A DNA stretch of 64,000 nucleotides, taken from Microbacterium sp. GTDB lineage: Bacteria > Actinomycetota > Actinomycetes > Actinomycetales > Microbacteriaceae. Below, one piece after another: positions 3,424-50,597 of the stretch. The stretch is taken from the NCBI RefSeq assembly GCF_049650565.1, contig NZ_JBASAK010000054.1, positions 3,218 to 67,217 on the forward strand, given 5' to 3'. The translations under genes were made by a program, and so were the position numbers. The notes beneath the pieces are model-generated. The model had not been told where the DNA came from, did no database searches, and worked only from the letters and a program-made list of their open reading frames with translations. Each line of letters starts with the position of its first letter. The first letter of the stretch is position 1.

Positions 3424-4395
3424 TCAGCGGGATCCGTACTCCTCTTCGCCGAGCTCCGCGAGAATGCGGTTGAGATCCTGAATCGAAGCGAATTCGATCT
3501 TGACCTGGCCCTTTCGTGCTCCCAGAGCGATCTGGACCCGGGTGTTCAGCCGGTCACCGAGCTTGCCGGCAACCTCGTCGAGGTAGGCGCGACGCGCTCC
3601 GGCCTGAGGCTTGGTCTTGCTGCCCGGCGCAGCCGGGAGGCTCTTCGCTGCCGCCTCGGTGGCGCGCACCGACAGGTCTTCGTTCACGACCTTGTCCGCC
3701 AGTCGCTGCATCCTCTCCGGATCCTCGACCGACAGAATCGCACGCGCATGACCAGCGGAGAGCACACCCGCGGCGACCCGCTGCTGCACGGGAACCGGCA
3801 GGCGCAGCAGGCGAATCGTGTTGCTGATCTGCGGACGCGACCGGCCGATCCTCGTGGCCAGCTCTTCCTGCGTGATTCCGAAGTCGTCAAGCAGCTGCTG
3901 ATACGCGGACGCCTCTTCAAGAGGATTCAGTTCCGAGCGATGCAGGTTCTCGAGCAGAGCATCCCGCAGCAGGTTCTCGTCCGCCGTCTCACGAACGATC
4001 GCCGGGATCTCGGCCAGTCCGGCCTCGCGAGCAGCGCGGGTGCGCCGCTCCCCCATGATGAGCTCGTAGTCGCCCGCGGAGTTCTTGCGAACAACGACCG
4101 GCTGCAGAACTCCGAACTCCCGCACGCTGTGCACGAGCTCGGCCAATCGCTCCTCATCGAAGACCGTTCGCGGCTGACGAGGATTGGGGACGATCGCGTT
4201 CGGATCGACTTGGATCAGCTGAATCCCTGGAACGGCAGTGAGCTCGGCCTCTTTCGCCGCATCGCCCATGGATGCCGCATCCGCATTCTGCTTCGGTGCA
4301 CCCGGGAAGAACACGTCCACCGGCCGCTCCGAATGATCCGCGGTGGGAATGAGGGCGCCGATTCCCCGACCGAGTCCGGTGCGTTTGGCCATCAC
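3424..4395 (-). CDS. parB: chromosome partitioning protein ParB
   Basis: The product has the N-terminal GLGRGIGALI motif, the ParB box ELIMGERRTRAAREAG, and the HTH TQEELATRIGRSRPQISNTIRLL. The start is either GTG at 4395 or the adjacent ATG at 4392, which overlaps the parA stop. Confidence 0.95.
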   Translation of the reverse strand: MMAKRTGLGRGIGALIPTADHSERPVDVFFPGAPKQNADAASMGDAAKEAELTAVPGIQLIQVDPNAIVPNPRQPRTVFDEERLAELVHSVREFGVLQPVVVRKNSAGDYELIMGERRTRAAREAGLAEIPAIVRETADENLLRDALLENLHRSELNPLEEASAYQQLLDDFGITQEELATRIGRSRPQISNTIRLLRLPVPVQQRVAAGVLSAGHARAILSVEDPERMQRLADKVVNEDLSVRATEAAAKSLPAAPGSKTKPQAGARRAYLDEVAGKLGDRLNTRVQIALGARKGQVKIEFASIQDLNRILAELGEEEYGSR

Positions 4396-5324
4396 TGCTC
4401 CTTCTTCTGCGGAGAGAGTGCCCCGCGCTGTGCGATCTCGACTGCTGCTTCCCGATACGCGATGGCTCCCGCCGACGAGCTGTCGTAGGTGATCACGGTC
4501 TGTCCGAAGCTGGGAGCCTCGGACACGCGGACAGATCGCGGGATGATGGCGCCGAGCACCTGCTCGGGGAAGTGGTTGCGCACCTCGTCAGCGACTTGCT
4601 GCGACAGGCGCGTGCGCGCGTCGAACATCGTCAGCAGGATCGTGGTGAGGTGAAGCTCAGGGTTCAGATGCTTCTGAATCATCTGGATGCTGCCGAGGAG
4701 CTGACTCAGACCCTCCAGTGCGTAGTACTCCGCCTGAATCGGAATGAGAACCTCGGATGCCGCCGTGAAGGCGTTGATGGTGAGAAGCCCCAACGATGGC
4801 GGACAGTCGATGATCACGATGTCCGTGGGGTGATCATCCAGGTAGGTCTGCAGAGCACGCCGCAGTCTGAACTCCCGTGCGACCTGAGAGACCAGCTCGA
4901 TCTCCGCACCGGCAAGGTGGATCGTGCTCGGCGCGCAGAGCAGGTTGGGGGACTCGGGACTGGTCTGCACGATCTCTGCGAACGGCAGGTCGTCGATGAG
5001 CACGTCGTAGATGCTGGAGACATCAGCGGAGTGGGTGATGCCCAGTGCCGTGGAGGCGTTGCCCTGCGGATCGAGGTCGATCACCAGCACCTTGGCGCCG
5101 AGTTCCGCAAGAGCGGTAGCCAGATTCACCGCTGAAGTGGTCTTGCCCACGCCACCCTTCTGGTTGGACACCGTGAAGACGCGGGTCTCCCCGCTGAAAT
5201 CAACAGTGACCCCTTTGAGAGCCCTGCGTCGGCTGCTGAGATCAGCGAGTTCGCGCGCGAGCGGCGTATCCATCCCGAAATCGTCGTTCGGCAATGCGTT
5301 GTCGGATGGTTTCACGTGAAACAT
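4392..5324 (-). CDS. parA: ParA/Soj partitioning ATPase
   Basis: The product has the deviant Walker A NQKGGVGKTTSAVNL and the IIDCPPSLG motif. The start is uncertain. The ATG at 5324 is encoded inside a parS site (MFHVK), and an alternative ATG lies at 5273 (MDTPLAREL). Confidence 0.93.
   Translation of the reverse strand: MFHVKPSDNALPNDDFGMDTPLARELADLSSRRRALKGVTVDFSGETRVFTVSNQKGGVGKTTSAVNLATALAELGAKVLVIDLDPQGNASTALGITHSADVSSIYDVLIDDLPFAEIVQTSPESPNLLCAPSTIHLAGAEIELVSQVAREFRLRRALQTYLDDHPTDIVIIDCPPSLGLLTINAFTAASEVLIPIQAEYYALEGLSQLLGSIQMIQKHLNPELHLTTILLTMFDARTRLSQQVADEVRNHFPEQVLGAIIPRSVRVSEAPSFGQTVITYDSSSAGAIAYREAAVEIAQRGALSPQKKEQ
5308..5323. promoter_or_regulatory. parS
   Basis: GGTTTCACGTGAAACA matches the consensus at 15 of 16 positions. 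The site overlaps the longest possible parA start. Confidence 0.85.
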
Positions 5325-5477: not shown

Positions 5478-5510
5478 GTTTCGACTCGCTGCGCTCGCTC
5501 AACGACCGAG
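5478..5510. repeat. hairpin repeat family A, single arm
   Basis: The sequence is GTTTCGACTCGCTGCGCTCGCTCAACGACCGAG. Its last bases supply the final codons and the stop of the GIY-YIG gene on the opposite strand. Confidence 0.8.
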
Positions 5511-5801
5511 GGAGCGGAGGGCACGTTCCCGAGCGCTCCAGCCCTTGATTGCATCGAACCCACCCTCAATGAACGCGAGTCTCTTTGCGTGACTCCAGCC
5601 TTGGATTCTCTTCTCCAGACCGAAGGCCTCGTCTATCCGGTTGAACTCTGCGAACCAGACGAGCTCGACGGGCAACCGACACGACGTGTAATCACTCCCC
5701 AGTCCCTGTGCATGCGTAGCCAGGCGTCGATCCAGATCCCACGTGCTTCCGGCGTAGAACGTGCCGTCCGAACATCGGAGGATGTAGGTGTATGCGGTCA
5801 T
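5499..5801 (-). CDS. small GIY-YIG domain nuclease family protein (100 aa)
   Basis: The motifs are YTYILRCSDGTFYAGSTWDLDRRLATH (GIY...YxG...R) and FGLEKRIQGWSHAKR. The track ORF extends to 6107, but that extra part is translated repeat and parS sequence. The in-frame ATG at 5801 gives the typical ~100-aa length. Confidence 0.8.
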   Translation of the reverse strand: MTAYTYILRCSDGTFYAGSTWDLDRRLATHAQGLGSDYTSCRLPVELVWFAEFNRIDEAFGLEKRIQGWSHAKRLAFIEGGFDAIKGWSARERALRSLGR

Positions 5802-5858
5802 CCCCAGATCGTAGGCATTGCGGGGCCTCCGCTTCACGCGGTTCCCATGTCCTGTGGA

Positions 5859-5874
5859 TGTTTCACGTGAAACA
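5859..5874. promoter_or_regulatory. parS (perfect palindrome)
   Basis: TGTTTCACGTGAAACA matches the consensus at 16 of 16 positions. It lies 58 bp upstream of the GIY-YIG start. Confidence 0.9.
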
Positions 5875-5905
5875 GCGTGTTGTGGATGAGAGTTCCTGCA
5901 TCTGC

Positions 5906-5971
5906 GTTTCGACTCGCTGCGCTCGCTCAACGACCGGTCATTGAGCGACGAGCGCCAGCGAGGAGACGAAA
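5906..5971. repeat. hairpin repeat family A, full copy
   Basis: The sequence is GTTTCGACTCGCTGCGCTCGCTCAACGACCGGTCATTGAGCGACGAGCGCCAGCGAGGAGACGAAA. Confidence 0.85.
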
Positions 5972-5989
5972 TGTGGATCCCACAGGCGC

Positions 5990-6017
5990 GTTTCTCGCTC
6001 CGCTCGCTCAACGACCG
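5990..6017. repeat. hairpin repeat family A, single arm
   Basis: The sequence is GTTTCTCGCTCCGCTCGCTCAACGACCG. Confidence 0.7.
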
Positions 6018-6038
6018 ACGAGCGCAAGCACCTGTGGA

Positions 6039-6054
6039 TGTTTCACGTGAAGCA
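6039..6054. promoter_or_regulatory. parS
   Basis: TGTTTCACGTGAAGCA matches the consensus at 15 of 16 positions. It shares the extended 21-mer CCTGTGGATGTTTCACGTGAA with the site at 5859. Confidence 0.85.
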
Positions 6055-6082
6055 GTCGGATGTGAAATCTGCTCTGTTAGGC

Positions 6083-6114
6083 GTTTCGACTCGTTGCGCT
6101 CGCTCAACGACCGG
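6083..6114. repeat. hairpin repeat family A, single arm
   Basis: The sequence is GTTTCGACTCGTTGCGCTCGCTCAACGACCGG. It ends 2 nt before the rsmG stop codon. Confidence 0.8.
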
Positions 6115-6116
6115 CG

Positions 6117-6743
6117 TCAGGAGCGGACGCGGGCGCGGAAGACGCGAGTCGTCTCCGTGAGGGTGCCCTCCCCCAGTACCTGGACAGACACCTCCGACAC
6201 CTTGTGCTTCTTGAGAACCTTCTGCGCGGCCGCGATCTCGGCATCCACGTTCTGACCCTTGAGGAAGATCAGTTCGCCAGCATCCTTCGCGAGAGGTGCG
6301 GTGATCGGGATCAACGTACGAAGCGCGCTCACGGCACGAGCGGTGACGACGTCGAACTCGAGGCCGACGTCCTCTGCTCGAGCTCGCATGATCCGCACGT
6401 TGTCGAGGCCCAGCGAATCCACCTGCTCGGTGAGCCAGGCGATGCGCCGCTCCATGGGTTCGATCAGCGTCCACTCCACCTCGGGACGTGCGATGGCGAG
6501 CACCAGCCCGGGCAGGCCGGCGCCCGAGCCCACATCGGCGACCGACCCGTGGAAGAGTGGTGCCGCGATCGCGGAGTTCAGCACATGACGAGTCCACAGG
6601 CGTGGAAGCTCCAGCGGACCGATCAGGCCACGAAGCTCGCCCTCGGCAGCGAGGGAGGCAGTGAAACGGCGGGCGAGAGCGATGCGGTCGCCGAAGAGCT
6701 CCGCTGCGGCGGATGGTTCGGCTTCGACAGGGGATTCTGGCAT
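6117..6743 (-). CDS. rsmG: 16S rRNA (guanine527-N7)-methyltransferase RsmG (GidB)
   Basis: The product has the SAM-binding motif VADVGSGAGLPGLVLAI. The gene occupies the conserved position next to parA. Confidence 0.9.
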   Translation of the reverse strand: MPESPVEAEPSAAAELFGDRIALARRFTASLAAEGELRGLIGPLELPRLWTRHVLNSAIAAPLFHGSVADVGSGAGLPGLVLAIARPEVEWTLIEPMERRIAWLTEQVDSLGLDNVRIMRARAEDVGLEFDVVTARAVSALRTLIPITAPLAKDAGELIFLKGQNVDAEIAAAQKVLKKHKVSEVSVQVLGEGTLTETTRVFRARVRS

Positions 6744-44476: not shown

Positions 44477-44560
44477 GCGCGAGTGGCGGAATAGGTAGAC
44501 GCGCTGGCTTCAGGTGCCAGTGCCTGCAAGGGCGTGGGGGTTCAAGTCCCCCCTCGCGCA
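44477..44560 (+). tRNA. tRNA-Leu (anticodon CAG)
   Basis: The sequence is GCGCGAGTGGCGGAATAGGTAGACGCGCTGGCTTCAGGTGCCAGTGCCTGCAAGGGCGTGGGGGTTCAAGTCCCCCCTCGCGCA. It has a long variable arm and the anticodon loop TTCAGGT. Confidence 0.93.
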
Positions 44561-44565
44561 CAAAC

Positions 44566-44603: not shown

Positions 44604-44792
44604 ATTTGTGAACGCAGGGTGGCACCTTGGAGCGGCCGCGAGGGAATCAAGCCCCCCTCGCGCACCTTCTGGGAAGCGATCCTCATGACCGATTCATACG
44701 CCGCCACCGGCCGACGGATGTGAACGCAGCTCACCGTCTCTTGCATCTGTACCACTGTTGTAATACAGTGAGACAAGAACGAAGGAGAGCGG

Positions 44793-47064: not shown

Positions 47065-47271
47065 ATGAGCACCCAGGGCACGGTCAAGTGGTTCAACTCG
47101 GAGAAGGGCTTCGGCTTCATCTCCCCCGACGACGGAGGCGCTGACGTGTTCGCGCACTACTCCGCAATCCAGTCTTCCGGCTACCGCTCCCTCGACGAGA
47201 ACCAGCGCGTCGAGTTCGATGTGGCGCAGGGCCCCAAGGGCCTGCAGGCTGAGAACATCCGCCCTATCTGA
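47065..47271 (+). CDS. cspA: cold-shock protein (CspA family)
   Basis: The sequence begins [35 protein letters not shown] and carries the RNP1 and RNP2 motifs. Confidence 0.96.
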
Positions 47272-47280
47272 GGCGAATGA

Positions 47281-47325
47281 CAGAAGAACCCCGCCGGTCC
47301 TCTCGGATCCGGCGGGGTTCTTCTG
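47281..47325. terminator. bidirectional terminator between cspA and the ParM-like gene
   Basis: The stem is CAGAAGAACCCCGCCGG / CCGGCGGGGTTCTTCTG (17 bp). Confidence 0.85.
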
Positions 47326-47339
47326 CATGAGGAGTCGGG

Positions 47340-48662
47340 TCAGGCGTCGACCTTCTCGCTCTTGCGCACGGCGCGGCGGCTGCCCTCGGGTGCCTTCTGC
47401 GCTGCGGCCTGGGCGGCCTCGAAAGCCTCCTGCGCGGCACGGGCGGCCAGGAACAGGCCCTCGCGGTTCAGGTGGCGCGAGTAGCGGGCATCCAGGTACA
47501 GCACCGGCACGTCGCCGGCGGCCTTGATCAGCTCGGGGTACAGCTCGTCCTTGATGGGGCCGGAGCCGCCGCCGTAGACGTACACGACCTCGGTGGACTC
47601 GCCGGACTGGCTCAGTGTCTCGCTGAACGCGCGGCGGATCTGCTCGACCAGGTGCTTCACGTCGGGTTCCACCAGGTGCACTGCACGGGTGTGGCGGTTG
47701 CGCTGCAGCACCGACGGGGTGGACTGCAAGAAGTCCGCGAGCTGCTTGCGGCTGGTGAAGCGCAGGTCGGCCTCGTCCTGACGGTCCAGGGCGTTCTCGA
47801 GGATGGTGCCGTAGCCCATGTCGAGGGTCGAGGCGGCCTCGGCGTTGAACCTGCCGTTGGTGAACACCGGGAAGTTCACGGTGCCCTCGCCGATGTCGAT
47901 GCCCACGGTGTTCTGCGCGGCGACGAGGTCGGCGCCGGTCACCCCGGGGAGGATGTCGGCCTCGCGGGTGCGCAGGTCGGCCAGCAGGGCGTCGGCCAGG
48001 GGCTCGCCCTTCTCGGAGATGGCGTACTGGGCGGAAGCGCCCTCGGCCACGACCTGCACATCGTCGAACTCGATGCGCACGCTGACGGGGGTGTTGAAGT
48101 TCTTGATCGTGACCAGGTGCACGGCCGAGCCCTTGGAGCCGATGAACTCGCCGGCGTAGCCGTAGCGGCGGGCGACGAACTCGCTGATCGGCAGGGCGAG
48201 GCCCGTGCGCACGCGCACGCGCAGCTCGTGGTCGGGCAGCGCGTCGTGCTCGCGCACGTAGTCGCGCAGCGCCTTGGCCGCGTACACGCCCAGCACGAGG
48301 ATCTTGCTGAGCTGCTGGTCGGCCTTGCTGGCGTGGCCGTCGTGCACCTCGAACTCGCTGAACACCGAGCCGCGCACGCTGAGCGCGGAACGGCCGAAGA
48401 TGCGGCGGTCGTTGTCGGACACCAGTGGCGACGAGAACGAGGCGTCGAGGCGGTTGTAGAAGTCCTCCTCGGCATCGCTCATGGTCTGCGGCGCCTCGGC
48501 GTCCTCCAGCGGCACCTTCGGCGACTGCCGCGGGGTGGCCACGATCGCGCTGGGCAGGTCGATGCGGTCCCGCACCCCGGTGTCGGTGTTGAGGATCATG
48601 CCCTTGACGTAGCCGTTTCCGACGTCGATGCCGCCGGTCAGGTGGATGATGTCCGAGCTCAT
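47340..48662 (-). CDS. actin-fold ATPase, ParM/StbA/Alp-like (440 aa)
   Basis: The motifs are phosphate-1 GGIDVGNGYVKG, phosphate-2 VGIDIGEGTVNF, and an adenosine-type VYVYGGGSGP. The ATG at 48662 is preceded by GAAAGG. The track ORF has a 53-aa non-protein-like extension. Confidence 0.8.
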   Translation of the reverse strand: MSSDIIHLTGGIDVGNGYVKGMILNTDTGVRDRIDLPSAIVATPRQSPKVPLEDAEAPQTMSDAEEDFYNRLDASFSSPLVSDNDRRIFGRSALSVRGSVFSEFEVHDGHASKADQQLSKILVLGVYAAKALRDYVREHDALPDHELRVRVRTGLALPISEFVARRYGYAGEFIGSKGSAVHLVTIKNFNTPVSVRIEFDDVQVVAEGASAQYAISEKGEPLADALLADLRTREADILPGVTGADLVAAQNTVGIDIGEGTVNFPVFTNGRFNAEAASTLDMGYGTILENALDRQDEADLRFTSRKQLADFLQSTPSVLQRNRHTRAVHLVEPDVKHLVEQIRRAFSETLSQSGESTEVVYVYGGGSGPIKDELYPELIKAAGDVPVLYLDARYSRHLNREGLFLAARAAQEAFEAAQAAAQKAPEGSRRAVRKSEKVDA

Positions 48663-48708
48663 GGGAAGGCCTTTCGTTCCGAGTCGTCGGTGTAATTGTG
48701 GAGGATGC

Positions 48709-49128
48709 TCATAGACCGAGCAGGTCGTCGATGGTCGCCGTCGCCGCGCTGGGAGCCGCACGCTCCCGGCGGGTCCTCGCCGGGGCGGGTTCGGCATCCG
48801 GCTCCTCGTCGGGTTCGGCATCCGCGGGGGCGGGCGCCGTGCGCGCCGCCGGCCGGGGCTTCTTCGAGGCGGGCAGCGGCGCTGCGGTGGGCTCGGGGGA
48901 TTCCGGCCGATCGTCGTCGGGCAGCTGCTCCCCGACGTACACGGGGATCGCCGGTGGGCGCACCGGACGGTTCGCCACGTCGACGAAGCCCTCGCGGGCG
49001 ACGGACTCGCGGATCAGCCGACGCACGGACTCGGAAGCCGAGAACTGCAGATCGAGCCATTCGGTGACAGTGGTATCGGCAGCGGGCACGATGAGCTGCA
49101 CCTTGCGCATGCTCGGCGCTTCAGCCAC
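48709..49128 (-). CDS. small protein upstream of the ParM-like gene; possible DNA-binding adaptor (ParR/AlpA analogue)
   Basis: GTG at 49128 lies 5 nt after GAAGGAG. The N-terminal KVQLIVP...TVTEWLDL...SVRRLIRESVARE has a strand-helix-helix look. The middle is a Pro/Asp/Glu/Ala-rich linker, and the protein ends in ATIDDLLGL. The functional call is an inference. Confidence 0.55.
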   Translation of the reverse strand: MAEAPSMRKVQLIVPAADTTVTEWLDLQFSASESVRRLIRESVAREGFVDVANRPVRPPAIPVYVGEQLPDDDRPESPEPTAAPLPASKKPRPAARTAPAPADAEPDEEPDAEPAPARTRRERAAPSAATATIDDLLGL

Positions 49129-49199
49129 TGCTGCTCCTTCACGTCATGGCGCGCGTCATCGGCAATGTCGCGCCTAGATCACGGTACAGTACCCGGCTG

Positions 49200-49868
49200 T
49201 CAGTCGAGCAGTGCGCGCCTCAGTGCGACGGTGTCGGAGACCTTCTGGTGCGCGAGGTCGGCCTCGTGAGGCCCGCCGAACCCCCAGCCCACGAAGATGA
49301 CCGGGATGCCGTGCTCGGCGGCGCCGTCGACGTCGTGATGCCTGTCGCCGATCAGCACGGGGCGGGACGTGTCGACCCCGGCGGCGCGCAGTCGATCGAG
49401 CGCCTGAGTGATCACGAACGCCTTGCCGTCGGCGCGCCCCTCGGGCAGCGGGCGCGCGCCGGAGATCGCGGTGAACAGACCGGTCAGCGCGTAGTGGTCG
49501 AGGATGGCGCGCACCTGGTTCTCGGGTTTGGTGCTGGCCGTGGACTGCGGGATGCCGGCATCGTGCACCTCCTGCAGGAGCTCGGCGACGCCCGGGTAGA
49601 TCCGCACCGAGGCGGCGTAGCCGTCGGCCTTGGCCAGCCCGCGGTAGCGGTCCACGGCTTCGTGAGCGCGCTGCTCGTCGAGGCCCGCGCGCAGCTGGAA
49701 CGACTCGTGCATGGGCGGGCCGATCCAGAGCGACAGCTCAGCGGCATCCGGCTCCGGCAGTCCGTACGAGGCGAACACCTTGCGCAGCCGCGGCATGATG
49801 CCGGCCGACGCGTCGGCGATGGTGCCGTCCACGTCCCAGAGGATGCAGGAATAGGGCGATGACGGCAT
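49200..49868 (-). CDS. HAD family phosphatase (phosphoglycolate phosphatase-like)
   Basis: The motifs are motif I ILWDVDGTI, motif II STAST, and motif IV LIGDRHHD. Confidence 0.85.
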   Translation of the reverse strand: MPSSPYSCILWDVDGTIADASAGIMPRLRKVFASYGLPEPDAAELSLWIGPPMHESFQLRAGLDEQRAHEAVDRYRGLAKADGYAASVRIYPGVAELLQEVHDAGIPQSTASTKPENQVRAILDHYALTGLFTAISGARPLPEGRADGKAFVITQALDRLRAAGVDTSRPVLIGDRHHDVDGAAEHGIPVIFVGWGFGGPHEADLAHQKVSDTVALRRALLD

Positions 49869-49901: not shown

Positions 49902-50597
49902 TCAGAAGAGGCGGGGAGCGCCGGATTCGGTGCCCTTCATGCCCTCGTAGTCGAGAACGACGCAGCGGATGCCGCGGTCCTCGGCCAGCACGCGGGCCTG
50001 CGGCTTGATCTCCTGAGCGGCGAACACGCCGGTGATGGGCGACAGGTGCGGGTCGCGGCCCAGCAGCTCCAGGTAGCGGGTGAGCTGTTCGACGCCGTCG
50101 ATGTCGCCACGGCGCTTGACCTCCACCGCGATGGCCGCTCCTTCGGCATCCCGGATCATCAGGTCCACCGGGCCGATGGCGGTCGGGAACTCGCGGCGCA
50201 CGAGCTTGCCGCCCTCGCTGATCAGGTCGACCTGCTCGGCGAGCAGCCGCTGCAGGTCGGCCTCCACGCCGTCCTTCTGCAGGCCGGGGTCGATGCCGAG
50301 GTCGTGGTTGGAGTCGTGCAGGATCTCGTAGATCTGCACGCGCAGCGCATCGCCGGTCTTCTTGTGCGTGACGCGCCACACCTCGATGACGCCGGCCGTG
50401 GCCTCGTCCTCACCCGGCTCCTCGGAGGCCAGGGTGCACGGTGGACTCATCCAGTTCAGCGGCTTGTAGCTGCCGCCGTCGGAGTGCACGAGCAGGCTGC
50501 CGTCGCCCTTGTGCACCAGCAGGCGCGTGGCGAGCGGCAGATGGGCATGGAGCCGCCCGGTGTAATCGACGGAGCAGCGGGCGATGACGAGGCGCAC
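49902..50597 (-). CDS. nucS: endonuclease NucS (EndoMS)
   Basis: The sequence begins [16 protein letters not shown]. It also contains [22 protein letters not shown] (PD-(D/E)xK core) and a C-terminal clamp-binding-like tail. Confidence 0.9.

Follow-up and report, generated by a model that had tools for sequence, protein, structure and literature searches.

What is a plasmid-type actin-like ATPase, together with a small partner gene, doing in the chromosome of Microbacterium, about 37 kb from dnaA and the replication origin and in a region that also encodes canonical ParAB? The question is raised by a 64-kb stretch of Microbacterium chromosome comprising the origin region (the window, whose positions serve as coordinates throughout), in which a gene for a 139-amino acid (aa) protein, referred to here as the adaptor, precedes a gene for a 440-aa ATPase. 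As described in a preliminary account made from the sequence, the two genes are co-directional on the minus strand, 46 nt apart by direct reading of the sequence, and wedged between cspA and the HAD and nucS genes (Table 1); the peptide motifs quoted there from both proteins are all in place. The two genes presumably form one operon, and their spacer measures 32-60 nt in most related loci (75-80 nt in L002 and L008). We consider it fairly probable that the pair is a module of the AlpA/AlpC type, derived from the partition loci of actinobacterial plasmids and integrated elements and domesticated as a bare unit of about 1.9 kb that consists of a promoter and the two genes.

By its sequence and predicted structure, the 440-aa protein is an actin-fold ATPase with an intact nucleotide site and a ParM-like architecture. 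It matches Pfam PF21522 (MreB-like_C) with 34.1 bits against a cut-off of 27.8, and PHROG 691, annotated as 'partition protein', with an E-value of 1.3e-16; PF17989 (ALP_N) scores 21.7, below its cut-off of 26.3, and no NCBIfam model matches. Residues D13, G15, D256, G258 and G364-366 are invariant among 38 aligned homologs. An AlphaFold model built on the homolog alignment has a predicted local distance difference test score (pLDDT) of 86 and a predicted template modeling score (pTM) of 0.84. When the model was compared with the PDB by Foldseek, the first 27 matches were all ParM-type or Alp-type proteins or the archaeal actin homolog Ta0583. BtParM (4xe7) gave the best E-value (1.7e-17) and Alp7A (5ec0) the best template modeling (TM) scores (0.63/0.72); pCBH ParM, pSK41 ParM, Ta0583, Alp12, Dh-cParM1, R1 ParM, CorM and AlfA are also among the top matches, and actin, MamK, MreB and DnaK rank below the ParM- and Alp-type structures. 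These results bear out the actin fold that had been proposed for the protein.

The preliminary description also remarked that the ATPase is roughly 120 aa longer than ParM. This is true of R1 ParM but is no peculiarity, because BtParM has 419 aa and Alp7A 379. An exhaustive search gave 334 clusters at 50% identity, nearly all of 400-440 aa, so the protein belongs to a compact subfamily in which the additional 120 aa are simply the normal size. A longer version of the frame extends to 48821, but it overlaps the upstream gene, and the homologs begin at MSS. At the C-terminus of the ATPase, a long helix is followed by a basic tail (47340-47400) that reads SRRAxRKxxKxxA in most Microbacterium copies and is likewise basic in other genera. 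We know of no such tail on R1 ParM. The tail could bind DNA or membrane.

The adaptor falls into three parts in alignments (Table 1). KVQLIVP is found at residue 9, TVTEWLDL at residue 20, SVRRLIRESVARE at residue 34 and ATIDDLLGL at residues 131-139. Its AlphaFold model has an extended segment at residues 8-20 and helices at 21-28, 31-46 and 126-137, with a linker of pLDDT below 50, so that the Pro-, Glu- and Ala-rich character of the middle part and the ATIDDLLGL tail, both noted at the outset, are supported by sequence, alignments and model alike. No family in Pfam, NCBIfam, PHROG or PADLOC matches the adaptor, and its 47 homologs are nearly all from Microbacterium; by tblastn, the copies in Arthrobacter, Saccharothrix, Streptomyces and Paenarthrobacter are 39-57% identical to it. 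The N-terminal region follows the pattern basic-x-hydrophobic-x-hydrophobic-x-hydrophobic-P-x-x-D...W-L-x-x-Q...S-x-S-hydrophobic-R-x-L-I-R/K...G, and the extreme C-terminus is acidic-hydrophobic in all forms seen (IDDLLGL, MDAIFSN, IDEIMAS, FEDLFRR, MDAIFGH and INELFRMI). The linkers are biased in composition and cannot be aligned across the family. Within the linker of the window adaptor, an exact 15-nt direct repeat (CGGGTTCGGCATCCG, 24 nt apart, 48786-48824) codes for DAEPD twice. Changes in linker length appear to arise by short duplications of this kind, in keeping with the length range of the homologs (117-166 aa).

That the adaptor is a dedicated partner of the ATPase, as first suggested from the one locus, is supported by its co-occurrence elsewhere. 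In the examined loci of Actinomycetota, which come from Microbacterium, Arthrobacter, Saccharothrix, Streptomyces, Paenarthrobacter, Rhodococcus and Gordonia, the ATPase gene is immediately preceded by a gene of 117-170 aa. An upstream adaptor with the shared N- and C-terminal motifs is also present in seven of eight low-GC IMG/VR contigs, whose ATPases are 41-49% identical to that of the window. There are two exceptions: the upstream open reading frame (ORF) in L097 lacks the family motifs, and Lactobacillus salivarius pMP118 has no annotated upstream gene. The N-terminal profile of the adaptor aligns with the small protein of pGKT2 and a Rhodococcus plasmid at a probability of 89% (hhalign, E 2.1e-6), although pairwise BLASTP between them is not significant. 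As far as sequence comparison reaches, the adaptor family accompanies the ATPase across phyla, keeping its N-terminal domain and a short C-terminal helix while its linker varies freely.

Comparison with related genomes indicates how the pair came to lie at this position. When 185,579 species genomes were scanned with NucS, 80 loci were recovered, and the gene order LacI-MFS-NucS-HAD-cspA proved general in Microbacterium. In 13 listed related genomes (L012-L015, L017-L020, L022, L024, L027, L029 and L048), only 22-866 bp separate HAD from cspA, and the pair is missing from this interval. The pair stands between the two genes in three of the 80 NucS loci (L010, L011 (M. arabinogalactanolyticum) and L016), and also in the window and in L001 and L092 (strains ARD32 and KUDC0406). 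Since HAD and cspA are about 90 bp apart in related Microbacterium genomes, the pair is an insertion of about 1.9 kb. Its junctions are tight, starting directly after the HAD stop codon and ending 10-40 nt before a G+C-rich hairpin that lies between the converging ATPase and cspA genes and probably serves both as a terminator. Since genomes without the pair have a related hairpin after cspA, the hairpin is assigned to cspA and delimits the insertion on the right. The base composition of the cassette is host-like, as had been thought, with a GC content of 0.697 compared with 0.679 for the window (standard deviation 0.023 in 1.8-kb windows).

The empty sites place the orphan status of the pair on a stronger argument than missing mobile-element genes, on which the claim originally depended: 13 genomes show the site unoccupied, and the pair itself leaves no room for other element genes. 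The earlier statement that the 64 kb contain no such genes holds for the roughly 25 window proteins that were scanned against Pfam, among which there is no integrase, relaxase, replication or phage family. An integrated element at the locus was considered and rejected, with no element families among these proteins and no repeat bracketing the cassette. A repeat associated with tRNA-Leu (44548/44652) lies beyond the far side of cspA and thus cannot bracket the pair.

The HAD-cspA interval is only one of at least four kinds of chromosomal site at which the pair is found alone in Microbacterium. In M. indicum, it is between an SRAP gene and a peptidase M18 gene, with the ATPase stop codon overlapping the next start; in strain G2-8 and M. 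gilvum, it is downstream of purL, with different immediate neighbors; and in M. mangrovi, it is between sucCD and purNH. Regardless of site, the Microbacterium ATPases are 83-97% identical to each other and no more than 77% identical to those of any other genus. In these sequences, this difference points to a single capture, after which the bare unit was relocated or lost. Several copies have neighbors of other kinds. Directly upstream of the pair in M. mangrovi is a 345-aa gene with an HSP70-superfamily match (L093:6846-7883), whose product would be a second actin/Hsp70-fold protein beside the ATPase. A MazG-like gene and an SLFN-type helicase gene adjoin the pair in M. gilvum (L094:5336-7391), SLFN_AlbA_2 is near it in L001, and DO-GTPase2, GAP1 and a TIR/AAA_16 protein are encoded beside it in Arthrobacter (L002, 3686-6750 and 18073-21171).

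Outside Microbacterium, relatives of the pair reside on plasmids and in what look like integrated elements. Searches of plasmids by tblastn matched the ATPase to a 639-kb Streptomyces plasmid (68% identity), to pGKT2 of Gordonia KTR9 (44.6%, E 4e-90), to a Rhodococcus plasmid (about 45%), to L. salivarius UCC118 pMP118 (29.6%, E 2e-43) and to L. mucosae LM1 (29.7%, E 6e-43). Overall, the Lactobacillus megaplasmids (L. salivarius, L. mucosae and L. reuteri) match at 30-33%, and plasmids of Bacillus, Geobacillus and Clostridium also match. No close relative was found on any Microbacterium plasmid or phage in the collections searched. An origin from a phage was rejected, because tblastn against 50,697 phage records was empty and IMG/VR yielded only the eight contigs mentioned above, which are large, of low GC content, and 41-49% identical.

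In Saccharothrix, Streptomyces and Paenarthrobacter (L003, L004, L006, L007 and L009), the pair is part of a common, mobile-looking backbone in the order Rce1-like protease, DHH/RecJ-like protein, Lsr2, SLOG/YAcAr, iteron field, adaptor and ATPase, with DUF5906, Mom, a serine recombinase, SSB, a nuclease and many small ORFs nearby. The same backbone is present on a Streptomyces plasmid. It looks like a widespread, undescribed actinobacterial mobile element that resembles the CGP3 prophage of Corynebacterium glutamicum. On Streptomyces plasmid NZ_CP109461 (L009:3664-10305), a Tn7-like block encoding a TnsA-like protein, an integrase, an ATP-binding protein and TniQ lies between the SLOG gene and the pair, that is, in the interval that holds the iteron field in related elements.

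The copies on these elements and those in Microbacterium differ in the DNA that precedes the adaptor gene. In the mobile-element copies, this is 0.4-2 kb of non-coding DNA with dense short repeats in both orientations, spaced by 10-11 bp; the repeat fields, phased at 11 bp, measure 400-800 bp. For example, 11 of the 26 G[AG]GAC[AG]C sites of the Streptomyces L004 locus fall within the 813 bp upstream, as do 12 of 32 within about 810 bp in L009, and Paenarthrobacter has [AG]GACC hexamers in phased runs. The repeats overlap a good promoter (TTGCAT-17-TAGAGT), and, going by sequence, the field with its overlapping promoter has the pattern of parC and alpS. In contrast, searches for direct, inverted and tandem repeats found no repeat field in the 62-373 bp upstream of the Microbacterium copies, in any of them. 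In the window, there is no repeat array of any of these three types in 49100-49260, in keeping with the preliminary description, which saw no iteron array. The putative DNA-reading strand of the adaptor differs as well: it reads R-W-S/T in mobile-element copies and Q-L/I-T/I/S in Microbacterium, and is conserved within each group. Compared with a type II partition system, then, the pair has no cis centromere array next to its operon and does not reside on a partitioned replicon.

What precedes the adaptor in Microbacterium is a short leader (Table 1). A core, TGTAC(C/G)(G/T)T, is present 55-75 nt upstream of the start codon in all Microbacterium copies, whichever of the four kinds of locus they occupy, and the hexamer that follows it is likewise common to the Microbacterium loci. 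Core and hexamer together are a putative promoter, although a scan of this upstream region for the sigma-70 consensus gave no match. The preliminary description had pointed to a palindrome and to two direct CGTCAT repeats here, both of which are where it put them. The CGTCAT repeats (49142 and 49154) are probably due to chance, since the window contains 31 copies of the hexamer and other genomes with the pair at this locus do not conserve it; we rejected them as iterons for these reasons. The palindrome is kept, as GTACTGTAC or GTGCTGTAC, in the six genomes whose pair occupies the HAD-cspA interval, and its form GGTAC-N-GTACC occurs at this locus only and not at the other pair loci. It was therefore dropped as an operator or centromere of the whole family. 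When up to two mismatches were allowed, 12 matches to the palindrome were found compared with 4.2 expected. A copy with one mismatch (GGTACAGCACC, 47495-47505) lies within the invariant ATPase codons for PVLYLD, in L010 and L011 as well as in the window; coding constraint probably accounts for it.

Purifying selection acts on both genes. Ratios of nonsynonymous to synonymous substitution rates (dN/dS) between the window and four sister genomes are 0.12-0.17 for the ATPase, which compares with 0.11-0.16 for nucS and 0.11-0.41 for HAD, MFS and LacI. Those of the adaptor are 0.29-0.37, and its changes are concentrated in the linker. The low ratios indicate that the pair is kept for a reason. Recent horizontal replacement was considered for L016, where dS is 0.34 for the ATPase, 0.36 for nucS and 0.55-0.79 for the other flanking genes.

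We suggest the following scheme. The pair would derive from modules by which actinobacterial plasmids and large integrated elements are partitioned, and would have become fixed in a Microbacterium lineage as a bare promoter and two-gene unit. The adaptor would dimerize through its N-terminal strand-helix-helix region and bind DNA, at least at its own promoter, where it may repress its own synthesis. The adaptor of plasmid R1 autoregulates at its own promoter. The C-terminal helix would dock on the ATPase and couple to, or tune, its ATP-driven filaments. We infer these steps by analogy with ParR-ParM, AlpA-AlpC and CorR-CorM, in which the adaptor couples to the filament protein in this way. Because there is no iteron field, a classical complex of many adaptors on a centromere would not form beside the genes, and the pair would thus not partition its own replicon in cis. 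Most likely it is retained for a task of the host, either positioning DNA that has adaptor sites elsewhere or a repurposed cytoskeletal role. The narrower proposal, that the bare pairs are a domesticated cytoskeletal system and hence an independent second case, after CorMR, of a partition machine turned into a host device, is conceivable but doubtful. If it is true, roles in nucleoid or origin organization or in the control of cell shape or division come into view, and a promoter with two genes would have spread within the genus as a cassette that is useful by itself.

Several points weigh against domestication of an AlpA/AlpC-type module as we have outlined it. The likeness to AlpC is known here through its published homologs (pGKT2, LSL_1868 and L. 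mucosae) and not from the AlpC and AlpA sequences. AlpA has been described as weakly AlkA-N/helix-hairpin-helix (HhH)-like (PMC5539076), whereas the Microbacterium adaptor appears to be strand-helix-helix, so that identity of fold between the two is uncertain. The ribbon-helix-helix N-terminus proposed in the preliminary description fares no better than its predicted topology allows. That topology is compatible, the model fits a ribbon-helix-helix dimer with a tethered partner-binding helix, and the UniRef name of one homolog reads 'CopG family', but sequence and fold searches lend no support: none of 32 adaptor members has a match in Pfam, three PDB profile searches return no such entry, Foldseek gives 0 matches, and hhalign against an approximate Arc sequence gives a probability of 1%. 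The interaction of the pair, polymerization of the ATPase and DNA binding by the adaptor are all drawn from analogy. 'Centromere-less' applies to the neighborhood of the genes, and adaptor sites could exist elsewhere, outside the 64 kb. Finally, our reading offers no mechanism for the arrival of a bare two-gene unit at four or more sites.

Other explanations account for parts of the evidence. The location in the oriC region, which holds parA and parB (3424-5324) and dnaA (9453-10988), would suit a role in cis in positioning the chromosome or its origin, in which the adaptor binds the palindrome or a few nearby sites and filaments push or anchor the origin domain as a supplement to ParABS. Conservation of the palindrome in the six same-locus genomes and the excess of its near matches agree with such a role, and the authors of the cParMR work raise a function for the chromosome (PMC12270681). 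However, members of the same clade occupy unrelated sites in M. indicum, M. mangrovi, M. gilvum and G2-8, so proximity to the origin is no family trait, and the palindrome is not conserved at these other sites. The palindrome also offers one dimer site where known centromeres have 10-24 repeats (PMC4446434), canonical ParAB is already present, and most Microbacterium species have no pair at the HAD/cspA locus. We regard positioning in cis as unlikely. That the pair acts in trans, by aiding a plasmid or episomal prophage that carries adaptor sites, or by excluding or destabilizing incoming elements with a related module in the manner of incompatibility or defense, seems to us quite unlikely. 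Its relatives are indeed modules for the partition of plasmids and large integrated elements, a related system could be disturbed by a chromosomal copy given that free AlpA inhibits AlpC polymerization (PMC5539076), and some copies (L002, L094 and L001) are near defense-type genes. These neighbors are anecdotal, though; no close relative turned up on a Microbacterium plasmid or phage in the collections, and the different residues of the DNA-reading strand argue against sites shared by mobile-element and Microbacterium copies. PADLOC matched neither protein at E-values up to 0.1, and a known defense system was rejected on this result.

We find it highly improbable that the pair no longer functions and simply survives, as yet unlost, from an integrated element that has decayed. 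The mobile contexts of its relatives, the disappearance here of every other element gene, and the variable region beyond cspA, which begins at a tRNA-Leu with a 14-nt repeat of its 3' end nearby, could all be remains of such an element. Against this, both frames are intact in more than 10 species, the ATPase has dN/dS ratios as low as those of nucS and below those of the neighboring HAD, MFS and LacI genes, all catalytic motifs are invariant, the terminal motifs of the adaptor are invariant while its linker drifts, and the pair has been retained alone at four kinds of site. Least probable of all, in our judgment, is an addiction module resembling a toxin-antitoxin system, in which the small protein neutralizes a harmful filament-former and represses the operon. 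This would explain the persistence of a solitary pair at several sites, free AlpA does block AlpC polymerization, and the gene order, the small-protein layout and the promoter-overlapping palindrome resemble those of type II antitoxin-toxin operons; yet partition adaptors explain the layout fully, neither PADLOC nor Pfam identifies a toxin or antitoxin family, and relatives of the pair have clear centromere-like fields. To our knowledge, no actin-fold toxin has been reported. We thus continue to favor a domesticated AlpA/AlpC-type module.

The surroundings of the pair are those of the origin region of a Microbacterium chromosome. The genes run in the order parB, parA, gidB, yidC, dnaA, dnaN, recF, gyrB and gyrA; tRNA-Ile and tRNA-Ala, then pknB, pknA, pbpA, pstP, fhaB and fhaA; tRNA-Leu, a GntR regulator with an ABC transporter, cspA and the pair; and HAD, nucS, an MFS transporter, LacI and an Mrp antiporter. 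In the segment 44477-44665, the last 14 nt of tRNA-Leu(cag) (44548-44561, CCCCCCTCGCGCAC) are repeated exactly at 44652-44665, which could be an attachment-site scar, and the GntR and ABC-transporter genes beyond it (44.8-46.7 kb) are missing from all related loci. Between parA and gidB, normally part of a tight conserved block, a 202-aa ORF on the minus strand (5499-6107) encodes a GIY-YIG nuclease domain (E 2.6e-14) and may be an inserted gene.

Table 1. Coordinates of the adaptor-ATPase pair, its upstream region and neighboring genes in the 64-kb window.
Feature	Position	Strand	Remarks
Actin-like ATPase gene, ParM/Alp7A/AlpC kind	47340..48662	-	440 aa; ATG start at 48662; assigned by Pfam, PHROG, AlphaFold and Foldseek
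Phosphate-1 motif	48600-48635	-	GGIDVGNGYVKG at residue 10
Phosphate-2 motif	47871-47906	-	VGIDIGEGTVNF at residue 253
Adenosine motif YVYGGGSG	47556-47585	-	VYVYGGGSGP at residue 360
Adaptor/ATPase spacer	48663..48708	-	46 nt
Adaptor gene	48709..49128	-	139 aa; GTG start
Adaptor residues 1-56	48961-49128	-	conserved strand-helix-helix region
Adaptor residues 57-125			disordered linker, Pro/Glu/Ala-rich
Adaptor residues 126-139	48712-48753	-	C-terminal helix ending IDDLLGL
Promoter/leader region	49129..49199	-	71 bp, from HAD stop codon to adaptor start codon
Promoter-like core	49181-49188	-	TGTACCGT
Palindrome	49183..49193	.	GGTACAGTACC; candidate adaptor operator; one exact copy in window
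Shine-Dalgarno sequence	49134-49140	-	GAAGGAG, precedes adaptor GTG
G+C-rich hairpin	47283..47323	.	arms 47283-47297 and 47309-47323; between convergent ATPase and cspA genes
cspA	47065-47271	+	flank of pair
HAD hydrolase gene	49200-49868	-	flank of pair
nucS	49902-50597	-	beyond HAD
parB	3424-4395	-	
parA	4392-5324	-	
gidB	6117-6743	-	
yidC	7346-8422	-	
dnaA	9453-10988		
gyrB	14343-16490		
gyrA	16676-19234		

Actin-like partition systems have barely been charted in Actinomycetota. A 2026 survey of plasmids reports type II systems only in Pseudomonadota and Bacillota (PMC13245405). By tblastn, however, plasmids of Streptomyces, Rhodococcus and Gordonia carry the ATPase family described here, so that surveys based on seeds miss the actinobacterial branch. 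The family is also present in many chromosomes of Actinomycetota. The informative features of the locus are the comparison with iteron-bearing relatives and the occurrence of the bare cassette at multiple sites. Together they amount to a natural experiment: the same adaptor-motor pair has a large iteron field when it is part of a mobile element and no such field in the chromosomal cassette that selection maintains. A comparison of the two states might reveal the activity of a ParM-type machine freed from its centromere, a question opened only recently by cParMR and CorMR, and carriers that can be cultured are available, such as M. arabinogalactanolyticum JCM 9171. The finding overturns nothing, and its interest would rise if a function at the level of the host were shown.

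Among known systems, AlpA-AlpC-alpS of the C. glutamicum prophage CGP3 is one of the closest, as it is also actinobacterial and has an adaptor gene followed by an actin-like ATPase gene. The adaptor gene comes first in alpA-alpC and in the pGKT2 pair, and the motor gene comes first in known ParM/ParR loci (PMC4446434); hence, of the two layouts to which the pair was originally likened, that of AlpA-AlpC fits and that of R1 ParMRC does not. The published list of AlpC homologs includes Gordonia KTR9_4800, L. salivarius LSL_1868, L. mucosae LM1 and a Geobacillus pGS18 protein (Donovan et al., PMC4446434). Because the ATPase resembles published AlpC homologs and the adaptor gene comes first, we place the pair with AlpC and its relatives. 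The small protein of pGKT2, which matches our adaptor profile, is called an alpA homolog in the same paper (PMC4446434), and a size of about 50 kDa for AlpC, as inferred from the 77.5 kDa of its fusion to green fluorescent protein (GFP-AlpC), fits a 440-aa ATPase. Elements with relatives of the pair encode an Lsr2-type silencer, as CGP3 does (PMC5137423). Free AlpA inhibits filaments and DNA-bound AlpA stabilizes them (PMC5539076). CGP3 has 24 alpS repeats, whereas the Microbacterium pair has no alpS-like field and is outside any prophage.

Plasmid systems also bear comparison. R1 ParMRC likewise combines an actin-fold ATPase with a small adaptor, which binds the ATPase by its C-terminal peptide (PDB 4a62, among our structural matches). 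It differs in being plasmid-borne, in having the motor gene first, and in having ten iterons that flank the promoter; R1 ParM has about 320 aa, is 12% identical to the 440-aa ATPase in the structural alignment, and has no match to it at the sequence level. Alp7A/Alp7R of Bacillus subtilis pLS20, BtParM and pCBH ParM, at 379-419 aa, show the best structural agreement, but Alp7A, BtParM and pCBH ParM are from Bacillota plasmids, are 14-16% identical, and have centromeres, and their adaptors are unrelated in sequence.

Chromosomal systems offer the other comparison. A 2025 study described ParMR cassettes encoded on chromosomes, among them Dh-cParMR-1 of Desulfitobacterium and Cb-cParCMR of Clostridium botulinum (PMC12270681). 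Like the pair, the cParMR cassettes consist of a chromosomal ParM-type ATPase and a small adaptor, are conserved among related species, and have a proposed role other than plasmid partition (PMC12270681). Dh-cParM1 (8x1i) matches the ATPase in structure, but it is 12% identical and comes from another phylum and another ParM subfamily, and the adaptor gene in Dh-cParMR-1 is downstream. Cb-cParCMR differs in keeping a parC, with three palindromic repeats bound by its ParR. CorMR of Anabaena, reported in 2025 as a chromosomal ParMR without parC that has been repurposed for cell shape, shares with the pair the lack of parC-like repeats and has proteins longer than those of R1 (bioRxiv 10.1101/2025.06.27.661541). 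CorM (9rmi) is among the structural matches of the ATPase, and CorR contacts the filament protein by a C-terminal helix, such that deletion of residues 150-162 abolishes the interaction (bioRxiv 10.1101/2025.06.27.661541). However, CorMR is cyanobacterial and is linked to multicellularity and the Min system, and CorR no longer binds DNA and has acquired an amphipathic helix for membrane binding, of which none is seen in the Microbacterium adaptor. Chromosomal ParMR systems are thus already known from cParMR and CorMR, and the Microbacterium pair adds to them an actinobacterial case, from another phylum and another actin-like subfamily.

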